Shown piece by piece: positions 1 to 32,174 of a stretch of 35,266 nucleotides of DNA; position 1 is the first letter of the stretch; each line of letters begins with the position of its first letter. Origin of the DNA: Candidatus Margulisiibacteriota bacterium (GTDB taxonomy: Bacteria > Margulisbacteria > Termititenacia > Termititenacales > Termititenacaceae); assembly GCA_031279305.1 (NCBI GenBank), contig JAITIS010000095.1, positions 1 through 35,266 of the forward strand. The letters run 5' to 3'. The position numbers and the translations under genes are program-made. Under the pieces are notes generated by a model that was not told the DNA's origin, searched no databases, and worked only from the letters and a program-made list of their open reading frames with translations.

Positions 1-978
1 ATCGGCGGAGCGAATGTCAACGGGTTTTCCCTGCGCGCCGGGCCGCCGCGCGGTAAGGTCACGACCTCCAGCGTCACCCACGCGGCGGAAGGCGTCTGGG
101 AGTGGTATGAAACCGTGACCAAAACCCTGCCAAATAGTCAGGTAAATAAACCGTCCAATATGCAAAACAGCGGCACCATAAATAACATAAAATATCAGCC
201 GGCTGTCCGGAACGGCGCGGTATCCACGGGCAACTGGACGTGGAGACGCAGCGGCAATTACAGCCAGAATAATGTTGCCGTGCCCCTGCCCGCGCAAATA
301 CCGAACGAAGTGACGGCGGACAAAATAAATTTCAGCCAGACAGGCAACGCGAATAATAATATAACGTACCTGACCGGCACCTGGACCTACTATCTGTCCG
401 AGTACAAAAGCCGCGAGGGGCCGCAAACACCCAGACCATCCGGCGTGCCAACCACCGCCACCTGGCGGAAAATCAAAGACGCTTATACGGAAATAATTTA
501 CAACGACAGCGCGCAGGGCGGCGGGCTTTTCGTCTCGACCAACGGCACGGAGTTGTTCGCGGACGGGCCTTTGCAGATCCGTTTTGCCAAAAACGGCAAT
601 GTCAGCATCCAGCTGGGTTTCGTGCCGGAGACCGCTATGGGCGTAAACCTGCACGTGCGCCGGTTTGACACTGATGTCGGCGGCGCAAACAACAAAATTT
701 CTTACTATTATAAAAAATCTTACGACAATGGCCGCACGGTCGGCGCCGAGGTGCATAACTCCGCCTGGGAAAATATGCCGATGGGCACGCTTGATAAAAC
801 CAACAACACCGTGGGCAACGGCGAGTGGCACGAGGATATTCTGCCGATCCCGGAAGATTACGAGGGCGGAGTCTGGTACTGCACTTACTACGCGGCTTCC
901 AACGACTGCAGTTACTGGGAAATGTGGTACGAGGGTTACAACGAAGGCGCCAATGGTTTTGCCGCGCTGGTGGACTAA
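1..978 (+). CDS. 5'-truncated surface/adhesin-like protein upstream of the Tad locus (function unknown)
   Basis: Frame 1 is open from base 1 (IGGANVNGFSLRAGPPRGKVTT...) through the 115..978 ORF, so the gene starts before the window. Rich in N/T/G/W/Y with beta-strand character; co-oriented with the tad genes. Confidence 0.6.
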   Translation: MGGANVNGFSLRAGPPRGKVTTSSVTHAAEGVWEWYETVTKTLPNSQVNKPSNMQNSGTINNIKYQPAVRNGAVSTGNWTWRRSGNYSQNNVAVPLPAQIPNEVTADKINFSQTGNANNNITYLTGTWTYYLSEYKSREGPQTPRPSGVPTTATWRKIKDAYTEIIYNDSAQGGGLFVSTNGTELFADGPLQIRFAKNGNVSIQLGFVPETAMGVNLHVRRFDTDVGGANNKISYYYKKSYDNGRTVGAEVHNSAWENMPMGTLDKTNNTVGNGEWHEDILPIPEDYEGGVWYCTYYAASNDCSYWEMWYEGYNEGANGFAALVD

Positions 979-1008
979 GGTATATTTTAGCGTTGCGGCG
1001 GGCATAGT
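977..1008 (+). promoter_or_regulatory. Putative SigB/F/G-type promoter for the PKD lipoprotein gene
   Basis: AAGGTATA-N15-GGGCATAGT; resembles the sigmaF/G-type GYATA-N15-GGnnAnAnT consensus; similar motif at 2164-2192. Confidence 0.45.
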
Positions 1009-1017
1009 TAAGAGACT

Positions 1018-2007
1018 ATGCGCCGCTCAAAATATATATTAGTGGTTTTAGGCCTCAGCTTGTTCTACTGCGGCTGCGGTATGACCACTGCAGGAAACGA
1101 CCGCTCAGCGTCAACTGCCTACGCGCAGAGAGTGCCGCCTAAAATCAACAGTATCGGTTTTGATAAAAATACAGGACCAACTCCCCTGACCGTAAAATTT
1201 ACGCCAGACCTCACCACTTATGAAGACACGCCGCCGGTTTATTCTTGGGATTTTGGCGACGGTCTCGCATCAGCCGAATCCGCCCCCTCGCACACTTACG
1301 CCTACAGCGGAATCTTTTTCTGCACGCTGACCGTATACAACAGCGCCGGCCTGCACAGCGCGGCCAATGCCAGAATATCTGTCAGCTCCGGCGGAGACAG
1401 CGACAATCACCAGCCGCAAATAACTAATATCACCGCCGTCCCATCTTTCAAATTAGACAGCGCGGGCAACACGGCCGTTACTTTTAACTGCACGGCCGTG
1501 GATGCGGATGAAGACACTCTTGTTTTTCACTGGGATTTTGGCGACGGGCACACCGGGGAAGGAGCTGCCAGCAGCCATACTTATATATGGAGTGAAACAA
1601 ATAAAATCCACACTGTTTTACTGACCGTGTCTGAGAGCAAAATTAATCCGGCCAGCATACAGCGCAAACTGTATGTCGCCGTCGGGCCTTCGGCTAATAC
1701 AGTCAATCTCCCGCCGGTCATAAATGATTTTTACATAACCAGCATAGTGGCGGATAGTGGAGAAAATGTGCAATTTCTGACGCCCTGTGATGTGTTCGTC
1801 AGCGCAAATGCTATTGATTATGACGGCTCAATCTCTTCTTATGAGTGGAGTTTTGGCAACGGTGCTGCAGGGGACAGAGACAATGCGAGGTGCCGCTATG
1901 CCGGAGAAGGCACTTACACTATCAGATTAACCGTCACCGATGACAAGGGCGGAACGGCAGTTTTAGAAAAAAATCTAAAGTTAAACGGCCAGCAGCTCGC
2001 CAGCTGA
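1018..2007 (+). CDS. PKD-domain (x3) putative lipoprotein
   Basis: Basic N-terminus, hydrophobic stretch and lipobox-like YCGC; three PKD signatures (YSWDFGDG..HTY, FHWDFGDG..HTY, YEWSFGNG..Y..EGTYTIRLTVTDD). Confidence 0.85.
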   Translation: MRRSKYILVVLGLSLFYCGCGMTTAGNDRSASTAYAQRVPPKINSIGFDKNTGPTPLTVKFTPDLTTYEDTPPVYSWDFGDGLASAESAPSHTYAYSGIFFCTLTVYNSAGLHSAANARISVSSGGDSDNHQPQITNITAVPSFKLDSAGNTAVTFNCTAVDADEDTLVFHWDFGDGHTGEGAASSHTYIWSETNKIHTVLLTVSESKINPASIQRKLYVAVGPSANTVNLPPVINDFYITSIVADSGENVQFLTPCDVFVSANAIDYDGSISSYEWSFGNGAAGDRDNARCRYAGEGTYTIRLTVTDDKGGTAVLEKNLKLNGQQLAS

Positions 2008-2027
2008 TTATTCTCTAGGAGGCAATA

Positions 2028-2162
2028 ATGCTTAAAAAATCTGTTTTACTTTTATGTCTGGCGGTTTTTGTCTTAACTTTTGGGTTGGTTTATTTGTCTA
2101 AAACCAATCCGTCCAGCCCGCAGTTTTGGCCCGCGAACCACAGCGCGGATGGACTGACCTAG
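2028..2162 (+). CDS. Small 44-aa single-TM/secreted peptide (below ORF-track cutoff)
   Basis: AGGAGG RBS 5 nt before ATG; MLKKSVLLLCLAVFVLTFGLVYLSKTNPSSPQFWPANHSADGLT*; fills the gap between the PKD gene and cpaB. Confidence 0.7.
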   Translation: MLKKSVLLLCLAVFVLTFGLVYLSKTNPSSPQFWPANHSADGLT

Positions 2163-2163
2163 A

Positions 2164-2192
2164 AAGGTATAAAAAGCCTAAAAGTGGGTAAC
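2164..2192 (+). promoter_or_regulatory. Putative SigB/F-type promoter for the cpaB operon
   Basis: AAGGTATA-N14-GGGTAAC, 22 nt upstream of the cpaB ATG; GGGTAA matches SigB/SigF-type -10 elements. Confidence 0.5.
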
Positions 2193-2214
2193 CTGTTTTT
2201 TGAGGGGGAAGCAT

Positions 2215-2991
2215 ATGCCGAAGAAACTAATTATATTGCTGCTCGGATTGGGGATCTGCCTCATAACTTTTTTTCTGGTCAACGCGCATATGGGTAAAAC
2301 GGCCGCCCGGCAGAAAGCGCTCAGCCAGCCGATCCGGGTCATAGTCGCCAAAATACCCATAGAGGCCAGAACAGCGATCACCGCAGAAATGCTGGAATAC
2401 AAAGAGATACCCAAAAACTACGCGGCGCCCGGCGCGGCGACTAATCACAGGGATGTGTTAGACAGGATCTCTCTGTCGCCTATCATCGCGGGCGAACAGA
2501 TTATCTCCGCCAAGCTGATCAAAAACGCCGGCAATGTCGGCCTGCCGCTGGTTATTCCAGAAAACAAAAGAGCCGTGTCTGTGCAGGTGGATTCCGCCGC
2601 CAGCGTCGCCAATATGGTCAAGCCCGGCGATATGGTGGACATCGTCTGCGTGGTGCACGACTGGGACAGAACTATCGCCATTCTGCAAAATGTGCAGGTG
2701 CTGGCTATCGATCAGCAGGTCATCGAGAGCTCCAGCGCGCCCAATCAAAGCAAACTAAACACCACAGTCATAGCCACTTTTGCGCTTAGCTTAAGCGACG
2801 CGGAAAAACTGATTCAGGCGTCGAATAAAGGCGCGCTGAAACTTTTGCTCAGGCCGCTCAACGATAATTCCAGCGTCATATCTTGGGGCGCGACCACCAG
2901 CAAACTGCTGCCTTATACAGCGGCGGCGCCCGCGCAGGCCTACAGCGTCCGGGTCATTAACGGCGCCCAAGTATCCAGCAAATCGCTTTGA
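2215..2991 (+). CDS. cpaB: Flp pilus assembly protein CpaB (RcpC)
   Basis: N-terminal TM, SAF domain (VIVAKIPIEARTAIT), RAVSVQVDSAASVANMVKPGDMVDIV and ILQNVQVLAID motifs; ATG 2215 follows GAGGGGG. Confidence 0.9.
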   Translation: MPKKLIILLLGLGICLITFFLVNAHMGKTAARQKALSQPIRVIVAKIPIEARTAITAEMLEYKEIPKNYAAPGAATNHRDVLDRISLSPIIAGEQIISAKLIKNAGNVGLPLVIPENKRAVSVQVDSAASVANMVKPGDMVDIVCVVHDWDRTIAILQNVQVLAIDQQVIESSSAPNQSKLNTTVIATFALSLSDAEKLIQASNKGALKLLLRPLNDNSSVISWGATTSKLLPYTAAAPAQAYSVRVINGAQVSSKSL

Positions 2992-3002
2992 GGGAGATCA
3001 AA

Positions 3003-4280
3003 ATGCTGAAAAAACTTTTAGTTCTAAGCCTATTTTTAAGCAGTATGTTAAGCTCCGCGGAGCCGGAAGCCGTGTACAATATCGGGGCCGGCACTTCGCG
3101 TCTGGTCAGCCTGAATTATCAGATCAAAAATATCGCCGTGGGCAATCCTGAGCTGGTGGATGTGCTGATAATGGCCAAAAATGAAATGCTGATCAACGCC
3201 AAAAATCCCGGCATCACCACGCTGACCATCTGGGATAACGACAGTTATCACGATTATTCTCTCGCCGTCTACAAAGATTCTGAGGAATTAACTTTTCAGG
3301 TTTACAAACTGCAGAATTTAAGCCTCATCAAGAATAGCATCGCCAATCTAAATCAAATGGGCAGCGTGGACAGCTCGCCGATCGGTGAAACCGTCCAGAA
3401 TCTCAACACAGTATTAGGCTGTTATCTGGACAGCAAAATGTTCGCCGTCAACCCGTGGTCAAATTCCGTAATGGTGGTGGGCACCGGCCGGCAGCACCAA
3501 AAAATCCAGGACATACTCGCCGCGCTCGACCAAAAAGAAAAAATGGTCGTTTTTGAGATCGAGGTGTATGAGATCAGCAATGACAATGCCTATGAGCATA
3601 AGCTGGAGATCGGCAGCAAGACCGACCTGCTAAAAACCGAAGACAAACGCTTTCCGTTAAGCGACGGCAGTTATGACTCCGCCGGCGACGGGCTGACTTA
3701 TGCGCTCAAGACCGGCGCGTCCGTTTACACCAATATTTACGACCAGCTGGATTATCTGGATTATTTGAACATCACGCTCAAACATTTGCAGACCGAGGGG
3801 CGGGCGAAACTGCTGGCCAAGCCGCGGATCCTCACGCTCAACAATCATCACGCCTATATTCTCTCCGGCGAGAAAATCCCGGTGGAACAGAAAGACGCGG
3901 ACGGCAACACCAGCATAGAATATCTGCCGACCGGCGTCATCCTAGGCGTGGTGCCGCGGGTGGATGACTCCGGCAACATCAACTGCTGGATCGCCACGCA
4001 GGTCAGTTCATTAATCGCCGATTCGCAAAACAGCAATGGCAACCCGATTATCGCCAGCCGGGAAACGGTCAATGAAGTGCGGCTAAAAGATCAGTCCACG
4101 CTGGTGATCGGCGGCCTGCTCAAAGAAACCGAGGGACTCATCGAGCGCAAAATCCCCGTGCTGGGCGACCTGCTCGGCTGGGTGCCCTTTTTCGGTGGAT
4201 TTTTTAAGAACACCGCTTATGAAAAAACCACCTCGGAGCTTTTGATCACGCTGAAGCCGGCGCTGGTGCAGGAAGACTAG
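3003..4280 (+). CDS. cpaC: Tad pilus secretin CpaC/RcpA
   Basis: Signal peptide; pilus-formation N domain (IAVGNPELVDV..LINAKNPGITTLTIWD); secretin core (AKLLAKPRILTLNN..A.ILSGEKIP; TLVIGGLL; KIPVLGDL; ELLITLKP). Confidence 0.88.
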   Translation: MLKKLLVLSLFLSSMLSSAEPEAVYNIGAGTSRLVSLNYQIKNIAVGNPELVDVLIMAKNEMLINAKNPGITTLTIWDNDSYHDYSLAVYKDSEELTFQVYKLQNLSLIKNSIANLNQMGSVDSSPIGETVQNLNTVLGCYLDSKMFAVNPWSNSVMVVGTGRQHQKIQDILAALDQKEKMVVFEIEVYEISNDNAYEHKLEIGSKTDLLKTEDKRFPLSDGSYDSAGDGLTYALKTGASVYTNIYDQLDYLDYLNITLKHLQTEGRAKLLAKPRILTLNNHHAYILSGEKIPVEQKDADGNTSIEYLPTGVILGVVPRVDDSGNINCWIATQVSSLIADSQNSNGNPIIASRETVNEVRLKDQSTLVIGGLLKETEGLIERKIPVLGDLLGWVPFFGGFFKNTAYEKTTSELLITLKPALVQED

Positions 4281-4289
4281 GAGGATTAT

Positions 4290-5456
4290 ATGAACATTTG
4301 TATTTTCAGCCAAAAAAATATACCCGCGGTCAGCGAGTTGCTGGCTATGAACTACAGTCTAAACAAAGCATTCCAAAACGCCGCGGACCTAAGCGCCTAT
4401 CTTGAGCAGGGCGAACAAATAGACATCCTGCTGTGCGATCTGACGCTGGCCGGGGAACAGCCGGAAATTATTTTAAGCAAAATAAACTACATCATCGCGC
4501 TGGCCGAAGACCAGTCGCCAGAAACTCTGCTGGAGGCGCTGTCGCTGGGCGCCAGAGAGGTGCTGGCTGCGCCGCGGCTAAGCGCCACCGAACTGGAAGC
4601 GGCGCTAAAAAAAGCCATTGGCTACATCAATGCTTACAATCAGCGCAGCGGCGTAAAATCCGCGAATATTATTACTTTTATCAGCAGCAAAGGCGGCATC
4701 GGCAAATCGGTCATCAGCACCAACCTCGCGGTAATCCTGCAGGAAATTTTTAAGAAAAAGGTCCTGCTGATCGACACGGTGCAGCGTTTTGGCAGCGCGG
4801 AAATTATTCTTAATTTCTGCTCGCGCAAATCGCTGTTAGCCGTGCCGGCTGAAGCGGACAATTTGGAAATATACTGGCAAGAGATCGAAAAAAATATTTT
4901 GAGGCACAGCGGCGGCTTGGATCTTTTGCTGGCCGGCGATGACAACCACGAACCCCTGGCCTCCGCTAAAATCCGCTCCGTCTTAAAAGCCGTCAGGGAC
5001 AAATATGATTATCTGATCATCGACACGGACAATTATTTTGTCGAGCCGGTGCTGTCTCTGCTGGAGCTGTCTGATCAAATCATTTATTTAAGCAAAATGG
5101 ACATCGCTTCGCTGAAAAATCTGCGTCTGGGACTGGACAGCCTGAAATCTTTTTATTTTTCTCTGGACAAAGTCAAGCTGGTCATCAATTGTTTTGAAAA
5201 AACCAGCGAACTCAGCATTGCGGAGCTGGAAAAATTTTTGAACTGGAAAATTTTCACCGTCCTGCCGGAAGACCGCAACACCATCATTAGCTCCATCAAC
5301 AAAGGCGCTCCTTTTGCCGCGGAGAAAAAAGACAGCGAGTTATTTCTAGCGCTGCGGCATTTCGCGGAGCTTTTGCAGGGCATCGCCGCGGACGACCAGA
5401 CGGACAACAAAAAAACCAGAACTTGGTTTAACTCGCTGTTAAAACTTTTAGCTTAA
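4290..5456 (+). CDS. cpaE: CpaE/TadZ: degenerate receiver domain plus MinD/ParA-type ATPase
   Basis: Receiver-like N-terminus (DILLCDL..EALSLGAREVL); deviant Walker A SKGGIGKS; YDYLIIDT; SINKGAP; GGAGG RBS. Confidence 0.88.
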   Translation: MNICIFSQKNIPAVSELLAMNYSLNKAFQNAADLSAYLEQGEQIDILLCDLTLAGEQPEIILSKINYIIALAEDQSPETLLEALSLGAREVLAAPRLSATELEAALKKAIGYINAYNQRSGVKSANIITFISSKGGIGKSVISTNLAVILQEIFKKKVLLIDTVQRFGSAEIILNFCSRKSLLAVPAEADNLEIYWQEIEKNILRHSGGLDLLLAGDDNHEPLASAKIRSVLKAVRDKYDYLIIDTDNYFVEPVLSLLELSDQIIYLSKMDIASLKNLRLGLDSLKSFYFSLDKVKLVINCFEKTSELSIAELEKFLNWKIFTVLPEDRNTIISSINKGAPFAAEKKDSELFLALRHFAELLQGIAADDQTDNKKTRTWFNSLLKLLA

Positions 5457-26892: not shown

Positions 26893-26967
26893 GGCCTCAT
26901 CGTCTAATGGTCAGGACACGAGATTCTCAATCTCGCAATAGGGGTTCGATTCCCCTTGAGGCTGCCA
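26893..26967 (+). tRNA. tRNA-Glu (anticodon CTC), CCA encoded
   Basis: Acceptor stem GGCCTCA/TGAGGCT; anticodon arm CGAGA-TTCTCAA-TCTCG; T arm AGGGG-TTCGATT-CCCCT; 3' GCCA. Confidence 0.95.
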
Positions 26968-26970
26968 CCG

Positions 26971-26991
26971 CGTGAAACAAATTGTTTCACG
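26971..26991. repeat. 21-bp inverted repeat made of two parS-like half-sites
   Basis: CGTGAAACAA-A-TTGTTTCACG just downstream of tRNA-Glu. Confidence 0.6.
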
Positions 26992-27002
26992 GATAATCGC
27001 GG

Positions 27003-27578
27003 TTAATACCAGCTCTCCTCCAGCACATTTGTGATCTTCTGTTTCATTATGGCGATCAGCTGCCGGCCGGCGTTTATAATCTCCCGCTCTTTTGCGGCGG
27101 CGGCGGCGAGTTTCCGCTGTATCTCCAGCGCGGGGAGAGGAATTTTTATCCGAGCAATTCTGGCCAGGGCTAATTTAGGAATGCCGGCGCCTTTGGCAAA
27201 ACTTTTGATTTGCTCCTGACTGTCCGTATTCTGCAGAATATATGCCAAAAAATTTTTATCTAGCGCGGCCTTATTTTTAATAACCAATTTGGCGGCGTTT
27301 TCCGTCAAAGATTTTCCATCTAATTCCCGCGGCACGGTGCCCGTCACGCCAATTGTTCCCGCTATAGACATATAGACATCTTCTTGCGAAATAGTATATT
27401 TTCGGATCCGCGCAAAAACATCCCCGGAAATATATTTCACTTTCGACAAATTGATTGTTCCATTCATAAAATCAACAACCCTAATATACGGGTATTCCGT
27501 GACCACGCCTGAAAATGTTTTGCCTCGGGGAATTCTTTTGCCGCCCTTAATTTCGCAAATCTCGCCTAATTCCACCAA
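27003..27578 (-). CDS. hsdS: Half HsdS (single TRD2); its frame is open upstream to the (AG)10 tract
   Basis: LGEICEIKGGKRIP, YPYIRV, MSIAGTIG, IKIPLPALEIQRK. Same frame upstream reads FGYSLRKLNNAR with no stop back to the repeat. Confidence 0.85.
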   Translation of the reverse strand: MVELGEICEIKGGKRIPRGKTFSGVVTEYPYIRVVDFMNGTINLSKVKYISGDVFARIRKYTISQEDVYMSIAGTIGVTGTVPRELDGKSLTENAAKLVIKNKAALDKNFLAYILQNTDSQEQIKSFAKGAGIPKLALARIARIKIPLPALEIQRKLAAAAAKEREIINAGRQLIAIMKQKITNVLEESWY

Positions 27579-27589
27579 GCGCGCATTGT

Positions 27590-29497
27590 TTAATTTTCTA
27601 AGGCTGTAACCAAACCTCTCTCTCTCTCTCTCTCTAAATTTTTGATAATTTCTCTGGCGTGGTTGATGGCCTGTTGTTTGGCTTCAATCTGGCTCACAAT
27701 TTCTCCCTGCGCCTCCAGCGGCGGCCGCGGGATTTTGATTTTTAGCAGATCTTTGCCGAGCAAATGAATGATGTTGGTGCCTCTGGCGTAAGCGGCCAGT
27801 TCTTTTTTTAAGGGGCCGCTTAAAAGATAGGCGAGATAAACCGGATTGATTTTAGCTTTGTCAATTCGGAGAATATTTATATCTCCGCCAATAATCACCC
27901 CGTCCTCCAGCAAAGCGCTGGCGGTGGCGATGCCCAGCGGCCCCGCGGTGGTCGTGCCGGGCACCAGCACATCTCCGCTGACGGAGAGTATCTTGCCGTC
28001 CCGGTCCGTGCGGCTCACCGCCTCCTTGATCACTTGCCCGTACAGCGTGTAAAGCTGGCCGTAATGAACGCATTTATTTCGGCCTTTTTCCCGCAAATCG
28101 CTTTTGGTCAGACCCTGTCCTCGCAAAAGCGCCGCCACTTCTTTTAACTCCACCAACGGCCATTTCTGATTTTTGCGGATTTTCGCCATTTTGTACCGCC
28201 CGCCGGATAAATTATAGTCGCCGGCGGCGGCGATTTTTTCCTGCGGCGCCCAGATGGCCAGCTCGCTTTTTTTCTCCAGCCCCTGCTGCCACGCCGCCAG
28301 CACGGCCAGCGCCTCAGGCAGATCATTTTTTTCTATTTTCCGGCGCTGCGCGCCGAGGTCAAAACCATCATTTTTAATTTCTATAAATAAAATTTTATCC
28401 GTTTTTTTAATAAACTGTTTGTCAAAAAACAGAATGCTGGTCTTCACGCCCGAATACGGCTGAAAAACTCCGGGCGGCAGCGAAACAACAGCCCATAGTC
28501 CGTCCGCGCAGAGTTTTTGGCGGATCTGGGTGTAGGCGCGCTCTGTCTTGAAAACAACGCCCTCCGGCACAATAATACCCGCGCGGCCTCTTAGGCTCAG
28601 GTGTTCCAATATGTAATCCACAAAAAGCACTTCGGAGCGCCGGGCTTGCACGGAAAATCTTTGATGCGGTTTTATGCCGCCTTTGGGCGTCATAAACGGC
28701 GGATTGGCGAGGATCACGGCAAAAGTTTCGTCCCATCTTTGCTCGCTGGTCAGGGTGTCGTACTCGTGGATTTTCGGCTCCGGGAAGCCGTGCAAATACA
28801 TATTGACGAGCGCCAGCCGCACCATATCCGGCGAAATATCATAGCCCGCGAGATTATTCATCAATTTTAATTTTTCGTCCGGGGTAAGCGGCTTGGCTTC
28901 ATTTTGCCTCAAAATATGCTTGTACGCGGAAATCAAAAACCCGGCGGTCCCGCAGGCGGGATCCAGAATTGTCTCATTCTTTTGCGGAGCCACCGCCGCC
29001 ACCATAAAATCAATAATATGCCGGGGCGTGCGGAACTGCCCCGCGTCACCTTGACTGCCGAGGACGGAAAGCAGATATTCAAAAGCATCGCCAAGATCTT
29101 CGCTGTGCTCATAATGAAAGTCGTTAATCTCTTTGAGGAAAAGCGTCAGCGTGCGCGGATCATTGTACGGCAGAAACACGCCTTTGAAAATATCCCGGAA
29201 CAACCGCGGGATGCGCGGATTTTGGGCTATATCCGCGATCGCCCGCACGTAGAGACTCAGACGCTCCGGCCCGGAAAGCCTCCCGTCCAGCAGTCTAGCC
29301 CAAGCGTATTGTTTTCGCTTAGCGGCAAAAAACTGCGCCTTTAAGCCCACTTCCTCATTTTCCCGGTCCATATCATCCATAAATTTATAGATGAGCGCCG
29401 TCGTGATCTGCTCCACCTGAGCTTTGGGATCAGGGACTTTGCCGACGAGAACATCCCGCACCGAGTCAATTTTTCGTTTGGTAAGCTGATCCAGCAT
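27590..29497 (-). CDS. hsdM: Type I N6-adenine methyltransferase HsdM fused to one specificity domain (TRD1)
   Basis: GQFRTPRHI, DPACGTAGFL (motif I), ANPPF (motif IV), IIVPEGV; then WPLVELKEV..IKIPRPPLEAQGEIV TRD/conserved region; ends LERERERGLVTALEN*. Confidence 0.92.
   Translation of the reverse strand: MLDQLTKRKIDSVRDVLVGKVPDPKAQVEQITTALIYKFMDDMDRENEEVGLKAQFFAAKRKQYAWARLLDGRLSGPERLSLYVRAIADIAQNPRIPRLFRDIFKGVFLPYNDPRTLTLFLKEINDFHYEHSEDLGDAFEYLLSVLGSQGDAGQFRTPRHIIDFMVAAVAPQKNETILDPACGTAGFLISAYKHILRQNEAKPLTPDEKLKLMNNLAGYDISPDMVRLALVNMYLHGFPEPKIHEYDTLTSEQRWDETFAVILANPPFMTPKGGIKPHQRFSVQARRSEVLFVDYILEHLSLRGRAGIIVPEGVVFKTERAYTQIRQKLCADGLWAVVSLPPGVFQPYSGVKTSILFFDKQFIKKTDKILFIEIKNDGFDLGAQRRKIEKNDLPEALAVLAAWQQGLEKKSELAIWAPQEKIAAAGDYNLSGGRYKMAKIRKNQKWPLVELKEVAALLRGQGLTKSDLREKGRNKCVHYGQLYTLYGQVIKEAVSRTDRDGKILSVSGDVLVPGTTTAGPLGIATASALLEDGVIIGGDINILRIDKAKINPVYLAYLLSGPLKKELAAYARGTNIIHLLGKDLLKIKIPRPPLEAQGEIVSQIEAKQQAINHAREIIKNLERERERGLVTALEN
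27616..27635 (-). repeat. (AG)10 simple sequence repeat; putative phase-variation tract
   Basis: (CT)10 on the plus strand, in the linker between TRD1 and TRD2. Confidence 0.9.
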
Positions 29498-29549: not shown

Positions 29550-32057
29550 TTACTCCATATATTGATTAACAGAAACATAATCTTTTACATACTCCGGGAT
29601 AATTTCCCGCCAGCTATCCAGAGCTTTATACTCCGCCATTGTAAAACCGGCAAAGCTGCGGGGAAACCGCCGGTTGTTTATTTCCCGGCGGAAATATTCA
29701 TTGGCCGCGTAGGCTTTCAAATAATTTTTAATATGCGGCACATATTTACTGTCCGGTTTATAGATCGAAATAAACTTTTCACATTCTTCCTCTAGTTTTG
29801 CGTCTTTGGACTTGAACGCGTCAATTAAGCCGAACGCGCGCTCCAAAAATTCGCGCCAAGTGATCCGGCGGTCAAGATTTTCACTGCGGCGTATTTTTTC
29901 CAGATTGAGAAACAACCGCGGCTTATCCTCATATCTGTCCCGCGCAATCCGCACGGCTCTGTCCCATTGCTCGTTTTCCACGGCGGATTTTAGCTCCGCA
30001 TCCTCCCGCAGCTTTGCGCGGGCTTTTTCAAATAATTTGCGGTCAACTTTCATGCCTTCGAGTCCGACCGGCGTCTCCACAAAAGTTTTTATGCTGTCCG
30101 GATCAAATACTTCAATTTCATCAGTCCCTGCGCCGCCAAGCCCGCCGCCGGCTCCTTGCCGCCCGATCGGCAGCGGCAAAATCTCGTCATAATCAAATTT
30201 TTCCTCAAAATACTCGCAATTGGCGAAAAAATCAAAAAACTTAAAATGTTCTTTTTCCGCTCTATGCTTGGCGCCGTCCGCGTCGATGTATTCAAAAGTA
30301 TGCCGGCGCGTACCGCGCCCTTTGATCTGAATAAAATCTGTCGGCGAAAAAACAGGGCGCATCAGCGCCAGATTCAAAATATCCTGACAGTCATAGCCAG
30401 TGGTCATCATTCCGACGGTCACGCACACTCTTGTCCGGCTGGATTTATAGTTTTCCAGAAATCTGGTGCAGCCGTGGAGATTATTATTGGCAAAATTGAG
30501 CGTGAAACGCTGCGCGTCTGGAATGCTGGAGGTGACCTGCACGGCAAAATCCGAATTATATTTGCCGGGCCAGAGCCGGTCTGCTTCTTGATTGAGCGCC
30601 TGCGTTATTTTTGAGGCGTGCCGCTGGCTCACGCAAAACACGATGCTTTTGCCGATCTCTCCGCTCAGCGGATCGGCGAGGGCGTTTTTCATAAATACTT
30701 GGCAAAAGACACGATTGGTTTTTTCGGAAAAGAATCTCTTTTCAAAATCCCGCTGAAAAAATGTCTCCTCATTTTCTTCGCCGTCGACGTTTGCCGTCGT
30801 CACGGCATAGCCTTTTTGCGAAAGAAGATCCGCGGTAATATCGGTCCGCGCGTCAGAAACAATCGGATTGATCAGATATCCTTCGCGCACCCCGTCCAGC
30901 AAACTAAAACGGAAAGTCGGCTCGCTGTTTTTACAGCCAAAAGTCACGTAAGTATCCAAAAGCTGCCGGCGTTCCCAAGCGCGCGGGTCATTCTGGGAAA
31001 TCCGCCGCGGGTCAATATTTTTCAGATAATCTTTGGGAGTCGCGGTCAAACCTAATTTATAGCCAATAAAATACTCAAAAACCGCCCGCGAGTTTCCGCC
31101 AATCGCGCGGTGGGACTCGTCGGCAATGAGCAAATCGAAATCCGTCGGCGCAAAAAGTTTTTTGTATTTATCCTGCGCTGTAAAACTCTGCACCGTCGAC
31201 ACAACAATCTCCGCTTTTTTCCAGTCGTCGCGGTTTTGTTTGTAGATCACCGCGGCAAAATCATTGCTCAAATAGCAATCAAGGTTTTTGCGAGCCTGCG
31301 TCTCCAGCTCCAGACGGTCTACCAAAAACAAAATCCTTTTGGCATTGCCAGTCCGCAGAAATAATTTAATAACCGCCGCGGAAATAAGCGTCTTGCCTGT
31401 GCCTGTGGCCATTTCAAAAAGGAAACGGTCATTTCCCGCCGCGGCGGCTTCTTGCAAAGCGCGAACCGCCCTAAGCTGGTAAGGGCGCAAAATCCGCAGA
31501 TTTTCCGCCCAGAGATACCGCGCCCTTGTCGCTTTGTCTCTGTAGCGAGGATCATCCTGAAAATGCGGCTTTTGGGTCAAAGCGATATAGTCCGCTTCAA
31601 CTTTTTCCGCGGCCAGACGCTTGTTGTCGGGCTTAAATTCCCGGCGGTGTTTTAAGGACTCCTGTGAGGGAAATTTGGCAATGACTTCCGGGTTGCCCCG
31701 CGCCAAATCCCAAAAGTAGTGCAGATTGCCATTGGACAGAAGCACAAAGCGAGCCTTTGCAGCGCTGGCGTATTTCCTCGCCTGTTCTTTGCCGTCGAGA
31801 GGATCCTTATCCTCTCTCTTGGCCTCCAAAACCACCAGCGGAAATCCCTGCTCATCCAGCAGGAGAAAATCGACAAACCCGTTTTTTGCCGACTCAAAAT
31901 CTTTGCCGAGAGCGGCAATGTCCTTTTGCGCGAGTTTCACGGCTTGTTCCAGCGCGATATTGGCCTGCCCCGCGCTATCGTCAAAAAACCGCCAGCCCGC
32001 TTCTTCAAGAAGTTTGTTTATTTTTATCCGCGCGCCGGCTTCTTTAGAATCCACCAT
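29550..32057 (-). CDS. hsdR: Type I restriction endonuclease subunit R
   Basis: PD-(D/E)xK-type nuclease (VDFLLLD..LEAK), LRPYQ, MATGTGKT, FLVDR, DESH, GLTATP, MMTTGYD, QIKGRGTR. Confidence 0.92.
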   Translation of the reverse strand: MVDSKEAGARIKINKLLEEAGWRFFDDSAGQANIALEQAVKLAQKDIAALGKDFESAKNGFVDFLLLDEQGFPLVVLEAKREDKDPLDGKEQARKYASAAKARFVLLSNGNLHYFWDLARGNPEVIAKFPSQESLKHRREFKPDNKRLAAEKVEADYIALTQKPHFQDDPRYRDKATRARYLWAENLRILRPYQLRAVRALQEAAAAGNDRFLFEMATGTGKTLISAAVIKLFLRTGNAKRILFLVDRLELETQARKNLDCYLSNDFAAVIYKQNRDDWKKAEIVVSTVQSFTAQDKYKKLFAPTDFDLLIADESHRAIGGNSRAVFEYFIGYKLGLTATPKDYLKNIDPRRISQNDPRAWERRQLLDTYVTFGCKNSEPTFRFSLLDGVREGYLINPIVSDARTDITADLLSQKGYAVTTANVDGEENEETFFQRDFEKRFFSEKTNRVFCQVFMKNALADPLSGEIGKSIVFCVSQRHASKITQALNQEADRLWPGKYNSDFAVQVTSSIPDAQRFTLNFANNNLHGCTRFLENYKSSRTRVCVTVGMMTTGYDCQDILNLALMRPVFSPTDFIQIKGRGTRRHTFEYIDADGAKHRAEKEHFKFFDFFANCEYFEEKFDYDEILPLPIGRQGAGGGLGGAGTDEIEVFDPDSIKTFVETPVGLEGMKVDRKLFEKARAKLREDAELKSAVENEQWDRAVRIARDRYEDKPRLFLNLEKIRRSENLDRRITWREFLERAFGLIDAFKSKDAKLEEECEKFISIYKPDSKYVPHIKNYLKAYAANEYFRREINNRRFPRSFAGFTMAEYKALDSWREIIPEYVKDYVSVNQYME

Positions 32058-32089
32058 AATTTTGTTTTAGCAGGACAATCAATACAGAG

Positions 32090-32174
32090 CGGAGAGGGCG
32101 AGATTCGAACTCGCGGTGGCTTGCGCCACACAACATTTCCAATGTTGCACCATCGGCCACTCGGACACCTCTCC
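32090..32174 (-). tRNA. tRNA-Ser (anticodon GGA), CCA not encoded
   Basis: Acceptor stem GGAGAGG/CCTCTCC; anticodon arm CAACA-TTGGAAA-TGTTG; long variable arm GTGGC-GCAA-GCCAC; T loop TTCGAAT. Confidence 0.95.

Follow-up and report, generated by a model that had tools for sequence, protein, structure and literature searches.

A dinucleotide repeat between the target recognition domains of a natural HsdM-HsdS fusion, a candidate specificity switch in a Candidatus Margulisiibacteriota bacterium

Introduction

The DNA analyzed here, referred to as the window, is the 35,266-nt contig JAITIS010000095.1 of a Candidatus Margulisiibacteriota bacterium (assembly GCA_031279305.1). It contains a locus which, as judged from its predicted products, is a two-gene Type I restriction-modification (R-M) system composed of hsdR and a natural fusion of hsdM and hsdS. 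An (AG)10 tract lies within the fused gene, exactly at the junction of the central helix and the second target recognition domain (TRD2), i.e. at the end of the first dimerization helix, and TRD2 is placed in a different reading frame from the methyltransferase (M) and the first target recognition domain (TRD1). The question raised by this locus is whether a change in tract length breaks the gene or exchanges one DNA recognition site for another. By analogy with characterized enzymes, the second answer is the probable one: slippage would switch the product between M-TRD1-TRD2, which would recognize an asymmetric site, and a dimer of M-TRD1, which would recognize a symmetric site, with methylation retained in both states.

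Results

Tract length and reading frame of the fused gene

The locus comprises the following elements:

27590..29497, minus strand: fused hsdM-hsdS in the current (AG)10 reading, with the methyltransferase, TRD1, the central helix and an 8-residue shifted tail, 635 amino acids (aa) (open reading frame (ORF), Pfam)
27617..27730, minus strand: central conserved helix following TRD1, residues ~590-627 (aligned to the family block ..PPLEVQKEIVEQIEVKQNAINHAKEIIKNLERER..)
27616..27635, minus strand: (AG)10 simple sequence repeat ((CT)10 on the plus strand), residues 621-628, the proposed switch (Tandem Repeats Finder)
27590..27616, minus strand: shifted tail, GLVTALEN and a stop, which results from reading in the +1 frame the DNA that specifies ..FGxSLRKLE.. 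in long forms
27003..27683, minus strand: TRD2 and the distal helix, with a stop at 27003-27005 (Pfam Methylase_S, 4.5e-19)
29550..32057, minus strand: hsdR, restriction subunit of 835 aa with a nuclease N-terminus and an SF2 helicase motor (ORF, Pfam)

An earlier note on this DNA, made from the letters alone, had proposed that hsdM is fused to a single TRD and terminates just past the (AG)10 tract, and the ORF at 27590-29497 and its Pfam domains agree with this layout. N6_Mtase was matched at residues 132-439 (2.4e-54; profile positions 3-306 of 311) and Methylase_S at residues 444-621, while N265-P266-P267-F268 (NPPF) and D179..F187 (DPACGTAGF) form invariant columns in a 39-sequence alignment. 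The 635-aa product ends with ..NLERERERGLVTALEN, followed by a stop. The second TRD, said in the same note to lie in another frame open back to the tract, was also found there: this frame, which reads ..RERERERFGYSLRKLNNARLVELGEIC.., contains no stop from position 27683 (upstream of the tract) down to the stop codon at 27003-27005, and its product is matched by Methylase_S with the value given above. TRD2 is intact, and its C-terminus corresponds to the usual C-terminal block of the M-S family. Both TRDs and both of the helices that follow them are encoded at the locus, split over two frames, and only a tract of 9 or 12 units joins them. TRD1 and TRD2 share 31% identity, confined to 74 aa at the conserved end; since they are unlike each other, the long and short states would read different sites. 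A TTG codon at position 27578 was considered as a separate start of TRD2. No ribosome-binding motif was seen by eye in the bases upstream of it, and a product initiated at this codon would be devoid of the junction residues.

The (CT)10 array (27616-27635; 100% matches) is the sole period-2 array among the 17 rows reported for the window by Tandem Repeats Finder. Matches to a 14-nt CT pattern in the window were confined to the tract, and the pattern did not occur in any of 100 dinucleotide-preserving shuffles. It is also the longest dinucleotide repeat of the whole genome (1,503,008 bases in 134 contigs), in which arrays of 5 (n = 49), 6 (n = 6), 7 (n = 2) and 10 (n = 1) units were counted. 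Simulation of other tract lengths matched the frame arithmetic that had been derived by hand translation: 9 or 12 units produce one open frame of 838 or 840 aa from stop to stop, corresponding to an M-TRD1-TRD2 protein of ~830 aa, and with 9 units the junction has the canonical length observed in relatives. Tracts of 7, 10 or 13 units lead to the ..GLVTALEN end followed by a stop, and those of 8 or 11 units to a second, different short end.

The hsdR gene, separated from the M-S ORF by 52 nt, is apparently intact. Its product matches ResIII (9.6e-38), HSDR_N (1.3e-06) and Helicase_C (7.6e-04) in Pfam, and NCBIfam ranks the EcoAI/FtnUII-family R subunit first (2.8e-68), with 231 bits, which is under the 550-bit equivalog cut-off. 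A D..EAK motif and a GTGKT motif are readable in its translation. The operon has no separate hsdM or hsdS.

Junction types among related proteins

A search of 5.8 billion proteins provided 8000 scored candidates; the family counts given below refer to the best 120 of these 8000. Among them, 83 proteins have 800-879 aa (N6_Mtase plus Methylase_S) and 24 have 600-679 aa. Members of this large family normally are two-TRD M-S fusions of 790-870 aa.

Junction classes were assigned with a regular expression of our own, applied to the region after TRD1. This analysis revealed 53 relatives that run in frame from an ERER-type junction into ..RYFGQxLRKLE.. and on through TRD2 (full consensus ..IIKNLERER, then RYFGQxLRKLExVEWVELGE..), which is the continuation of the linker that the earlier note had put forward as a check. 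Shifted reading at the tract was observed in 13 of the 66 ERER-type members, the query included, with a stop 8-10 residues past ..NLERER. The tails of the 12 short relatives resemble that of the query (DILVKRLES, LILVKALEN, ILVKALEE and ..ILVKRLES, each followed by a stop), and protein P0113 ends with ..NLERE, then TLFWPVA and a stop, the tail expected from the loss of one unit. Another 53 proteins have a different junction without ERER. Eleven short ones among these end in the normal distal-helix block and are, by their sequences, true single-TRD members; natural single-TRD members of 640 aa are present in the family.

The resemblance of the 12 tails raised the possibility that ..GLVTALEN is a conserved native C-terminus. 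This was rejected, since the tail arises when the conserved DNA for ..YFGQxLRKLE.. is read in the +1 frame. When one AG was added in silico to the long-form DNA of locus L091, the end of the short protein P0115 was obtained, letter for letter.

One long-form protein of 794 aa (P0049) has an in-frame expansion of ER residues at the junction (..LERERERERRYFG..), indicating that the tract can grow by three units with the frame kept.

The same allele in both frames

Several short and long proteins proved to be the same up to the tract. Three pairs are 100% identical upstream of it, over 637 aa (P0006/P0007), 611 aa (P0115/P0109) and 633 aa (P0116/P0088), and two further pairs are 99.0% (P0030/P0065) and 97.4% (P0074/P0069) identical. 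Otherwise identical genes that differ only at the repeat are the pattern expected from recent, possibly reversible slippage.

At the DNA level, two scans of sequence collections yielded 160 loci, 24 of which have an ERER-type junction. In the in-frame long-form loci the junction is written ..CTA GAG AGA GAG AGA CGN TAT TTT GG.., i.e. (GA)6. Four loci contain (GA)7 (L006, L031, L191 and L193), and their other frame contains an open TRD2 of 215, 217, 187 and 178 aa, respectively; in L006 and L031 this TRD2, located past the early stop, is complete and has the C-terminus typical of the family. Tract length is variable among relatives, an invariant length having been named in the earlier note as grounds for refutation, both in these loci and in the proteins shifted at the same tract. 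All intact shifted alleles for which DNA is available contain one additional unit, and the window, with 10 units compared to the 9 needed for the in-frame form, is in the same state. In two loci (L097 and L098) the tract is one unit short and a second break is present. A pattern search covering 401 genomes from the phylum to which locus L054 belongs detected the junction in six: it is in frame in three (6 units) and shifted in two (7 units; the TRD2 frames of 187 and 178 aa given above), and the sixth has 5 units. This 5-unit remnant (L189) is without the M part. Among the loci compared at the DNA level the tract of the window is the longest (20 nt, compared to 10-15 nt). A search of viral contigs for (GA)5-CGN-TATTTTGG produced no matches.

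An hsdR gene encoding 831-868 aa is located upstream of the M-S gene in L006, L028, L031 and L097. Locus L028 (positions 369-5381 of a closed chromosome from a metagenome-assembled genome) encodes a short M-TRD1 of 631 aa together with an intact hsdR, and there is no TRD2 downstream; its tract has decayed to TTG GAG GGA GAA AGG, and the short form appears to be fixed. In this locus hsdR and the M gene are separated by an inserted gene for a 194-aa ORF6N-domain protein. In L006 (5980-8202) and L031 (5950-8286) the M-S gene is followed by an ORF of 741-779 aa that is absent from the window. The L006 ORF matches AAA_13 (2.6e-113), and this downstream ORF may be an accessory defence gene.

The direction of the shift is uneven: nearly all intact shifted alleles (12 proteins besides the query and four loci) have gained one unit, and the loss of one unit was seen in P0113 and otherwise in decayed loci only. 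This excess could result from a mutational bias or from selection for the +1-frame tail.

Contigs possibly from the source sample were compared using Logan assemblies of three runs of one study; no RNA run was listed as containing the stretch. Two of the three runs (X2 and X3) contain next to nothing of it. The third, X1, is a termite gut metagenome that is possibly the source sample of the window, with a depth of ~9.5. One X1 contig (record 5) covers the 1073 nt of positions 26938-28010 with 1071 letters; "gaps 2" is reported for it, and no further differences. In this comparison positions 27607-27645 were masked and one gap row was dropped there, so the placement of the 2-nt gap is deduced from the masking note; on this placement the contig would carry (CT)9, i.e. 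the fused allele. The 2-nt difference reflects either a mixed population or an error in one of the two assemblies.

Conservation of the tract at the nucleotide level

The codon usage of the junction was examined in 23 loci, the window included, with L097 and L098 left out as decayed. ERER is written GAG-AGA-GAG-AGA in 20 of the 23. In the same genes GAG accounts for 17-49% of Glu codons and AGA for 12-50% of Arg codons, from which this arrangement is expected in 0.1-1.6% per gene. In a column-by-column count of 21 sequences (L020 and L114, whose helix is divergent, were also dropped), the four tract columns have a single codon in 20/20, 19/19, 19/21 and 20/21 sequences (90-100%). The corresponding values are 11/17, 19/20, 13/18 and 18/20 for four other Glu columns of the helix, and 14/19, 6/14 and 10/21 for three Leu columns; flanking helix columns overall have a single codon in 42-100% of sequences. 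Relatives that keep the tract belong to Patescibacteria, Thermodesulfobacteriota and Gammaproteobacteria, among other taxa (as titled in the records).

Predicted dimerization of the short form

With the tract at its extreme end, the helix is retained complete in the short form. Past the PPLE motif this form has ~42 residues, compared to ~41 in the natural 640-aa single-TRD members. A homodimer model of two copies of residues 440-635 obtained a score of 0.50, whereas the best control obtained 0.18; a score this high was attained by 20 of 30 solved homodimers and one of 23 single chains. At least 88% of contacts are shared between runs, with a predicted local distance difference test (pLDDT) score of at least 83. 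The predicted interface is a symmetric antiparallel pair of helices (residues 596-635), the shifted tail included. Together with the analogy to known half-S enzymes, the model suggests that the short form may be active and may recognize a palindromic site.

Genomic context and other repeats

One of the two 7-unit repeats of the genome, (TG)7 at positions 12013-12026 of contig C54 (4014-4027 of L185), lies between the TRDs of the only other S gene of this genome. Two of the three longest dinucleotide repeats of the genome are thus placed at inter-TRD junctions, for which chance is a poor explanation. The second S gene encodes 353 aa with two TRDs, and on its coding strand the repeat is (CA)7, in frame, and reads ..KFIDTHTHSYS... 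This gene is partnered by one encoding 615 aa, with N6_Mtase matched at residues 292-570 and no domain assigned to the N-terminus; no hsdR is found beside it, and a gene for an AcrB-type pump adjoins. The layout of this pair may be BcgI-like (Type IIB).

The 5.1-kb R-M operon of the window is located between tRNA-Glu(CTC) (26893-26967, plus strand) and tRNA-Ser(GGA) (32089-32174, minus strand), and no integrase was found in the interval between these tRNA genes. The G+C content of the operon is 0.44-0.53, compared to 0.53-0.66 in the left flank. A comparison with 60 other genomes of the phylum revealed no orthologue of the fused gene; the best match other than itself was 42% identical and confined to the methyltransferase domain. 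The lower G+C content, the bracketing by tRNA genes and this absence of an orthologue suggest that the operon was probably acquired.

Other repeats of the genome were also inspected. The homopolymers G38, C14, G14 and G16 (contigs C45, C62, C66 and C113) were rejected as phase-variable tracts, since they are located at contig ends or no more than ~70 bases away and resemble assembly artefacts. A heptamer, AAATACG, is present in eight tandem copies at positions 8233-8288 of contig C10, with only short frames (73 and 93 aa) over or beside it.

Discussion

Proposed mechanism

In the mechanism that we consider probable, the (AG)n tract at the end of the first dimerization helix would govern the specificity part of the fusion. 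With 9 or 12 units the gene encodes M-TRD1-helix-TRD2-helix, the normal protein of the family, and with 7, 10 or 13 units M-TRD1-helix plus a short tail; slippage of the replicating strand would raise and lower the number of units among the cells of a population. The long form would read an asymmetric bipartite site, composed of a TRD1 half-site and a TRD2 half-site. Two short chains would pair through the antiparallel helix to form an (M-halfS)2 enzyme specific for a symmetric TRD1-TRD1 site. Methylation, and restriction in the presence of HsdR, would then change target rather than be switched off. If such a change in methylation altered the expression of a set of genes, the system would be a phasevarion, a possibility raised in the earlier note.

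Several observations weigh against this mechanism. The tracts of the relatives are short (6-7 units), so that switching rates may be low, and some shifted loci are decayed, as in the case of L097/L098 with their second break and of L189, which is without the M part. The long form provides one M per two TRDs, as opposed to the usual need for 2M:1S, in an operon that has no additional hsdM. Several flanking helix columns also have a single codon in 90-100% of sequences, the DNA of the helix being fairly conserved overall, and this conservation could be due to recombination between systems (TRD shuffling) instead of selection for the repeat. The loci and proteins are related, so their counts are not independent, and L020/L114 as well as L097/L098 are near-duplicates. 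The homodimer model may have passed owing to its likeness to solved HsdS structures. Finally, X1 is possibly the window's own source, in which case one of the two assemblies could be wrong, and the site of the 2-nt difference was deduced indirectly.

Alternative explanations

The alternative that survives best, although we regard it as unlikely, is that the tract is a mutational hot spot: the repeat would only break the gene, the short product would be inactive or unstable, and the locus would represent an ON/OFF switch or a route to gene loss. The decayed shifted relatives, i.e. L097/L098 and the L189 remnant, are consistent with such a fate, as is the finding that an unfused half-S gave no clear in vivo restriction in a phage plating assay, in the accessible part of Bower et al. 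(PMC6158711). However, the intact shifted alleles retain a complete TRD2 and hsdR, and the +1-unit frame is shared by 12 relatives and four loci, whereas the -1-unit state is found in one protein, the -1-unit loci being decayed. Locus L028 has retained its 631-aa short form and hsdR after the loss of both the tract and TRD2, and single-TRD proteins of 640 aa occur naturally. The predicted homodimer, which passed its controls, and the full activity described for an engineered M-half-S fusion in the same publication (PMC6158711, as far as its text was available) also argue against an inactive short product.

It is rather improbable that the state of the window is a sequencing or assembly artefact, in which the true allele would be (AG)9, encoding an in-frame fusion, and the extra unit would have arisen from read stutter or during assembly. 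The X1 contig, whose sample is possibly that of the window, has 2 nt fewer over the stretch holding the tract, and the depth is only ~9.5. Nevertheless, assemblies that differ by exactly one unit are equally expected of a mixed population, and the +1-unit state recurs in the independent public assemblies of relatives. Stutter in the polymerase chain reaction mostly shortens repeats, a tendency which argues against a spurious additional unit. The family-wide tract and the shifted alleles would stand even if the window were wrong.

A further possibility, to which we give little credence, is that (GA)n is a built-in, family-wide device, older than the organism that carries it and kept across phyla, through which a fused M-S enzyme could adopt two architectures. 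It may also meet the stoichiometric difficulty of the fusion, with its one M for two TRDs: cells or clonal patches would obtain both chains through low-level slippage of DNA, RNA or ribosomes, and the strong excess of +1 alleles among the intact shifted ones would reflect selection on the dual-coded tail. M-TRD1 would act as a symmetric enzyme of its own or as a second methyltransferase for the long form; the latter role would parallel the clipped M-containing fragment that was co-purified with the engineered MSfus enzyme, according to the available text of PMC6158711.

The last alternative is programmed recoding, in which RNA polymerase or the ribosome slips on (GA)n so that one allele yields long and short products at a set ratio. 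A frameshift at this junction meets a stop after 8-10 codons; dnaX and other known two-product genes are laid out in this way. Although (GA)6 is conserved at the nucleotide level even in in-frame alleles across phyla, and leaky restoration of the frame on (AG)n inserts, rising with repeat length, is described for a mod gene reporter in the accessible part of a preprint (10.64898/2026.04.01.715767), recoding is very improbable, since restoration on the repeat itself was weak in that report and genomic alleles occur in both frames, which places the change at the DNA level. Neither a slippery heptamer nor a stimulatory structure was seen, although no search aimed at them was made.

Comparison with known systems

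The slippage-driven specificity switch proposed here has a mechanism that is itself known, since inter-TRD repeats in hsdS genes, AG[n] included, have already been surveyed (PMC7383803, in the part available). In this REBASE survey (Atack et al. 2019) repeats were reported in 7.8% of hsdS genes and were stated to "invariably occur between two TRDs"; they were predicted to toggle between full-length and truncated HsdS, and AG[n] was listed in at least 14 Mycoplasmataceae hsdS genes (PMC7383803). The survey, in the text available, deals with separate hsdS genes, mostly of cultured host-adapted bacteria, whereas the present genes are M-S fusions of uncultured environmental and gut bacteria. The ancestral tract of 6 units is above the 5-unit cut-off applied there, and the word "fusion" does not occur in the accessible text of that paper (PMC7383803).

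The closest proven counterpart is NgoAV of Neisseria gonorrhoeae (hsdS1/hsdS2), in which a poly-G tract switches recognition between GCAN8TGC and GCAN7STCA (PMC9577141, available portion). In both systems the repeat lies between two TRDs. One length of the NgoAV tract produces a truncated, one-TRD S dimer specific for the quasi-palindromic GCAN8TGC, the other fuses the TRDs and provides specificity for the asymmetric GCAN7STCA, and the methyltransferase is active in both states, as described in the available parts of PMC9577141 and PMC7383803. The systems differ in that the poly-G tract is placed in a separate hsdS beside a separate hsdM, whereas here a dinucleotide repeat lies within one M-S polypeptide, so the switch would also change the chain itself (M plus two TRDs compared to M plus one TRD). 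NgoAV has been proven experimentally, whereas the present system is known from sequence.

The two states predicted here have the architectures of enzymes constructed in the laboratory. Engineered MSfus and M-half-S fusions of S. aureus CC398-1 were both active methyltransferases and restricted DNA together with HsdR (Bower et al. 2018, PMC6158711, accessible text). The half forms dimerized and methylated the palindrome ACCN5GGT instead of ACCN5RTGA, and MSfus was co-purified with a clipped fragment containing M, according to the same text (PMC6158711). A fusion of EcoKI M and S (Roberts et al. 2012, PMC3510504) needed added HsdM, as reported in the accessible part of PMC6158711, whereas the operon described here is without a separate hsdM gene.

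Our literature search, which covered sources other than REBASE, most subscription journals and supplementary files, found no natural M-S fusion with a repeat switch. As far as this search shows, the new elements are the natural one-chain M-S setting, the move between two architectures constructed by hand in 2018, the retention of the tract in distant lineages of mostly uncultured bacteria, and the finding that one in five members is shifted. The switching of Type I specificity by repeats is known mainly from work on a few pathogens, and the same logic would operate here in a one-chain fusion; such contingency switches may be common in uncultured, small-genome and gut bacteria, in which they would reshape phage defence and methylation patterns. 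With respect to annotation, about one in five members of the ERER subfamily are listed as "short" proteins when they are in fact one repeat unit away from the long form.

MSfus and M-half-S correspond in their architectures to the long and short states of the locus (PMC6158711, available text). They are, however, laboratory constructs, examined one at a time, whereas the natural gene described here could move between both by slippage. The locus may thus represent a natural test of the MSfus/M-half-S model of how the architecture of restriction enzymes evolves.

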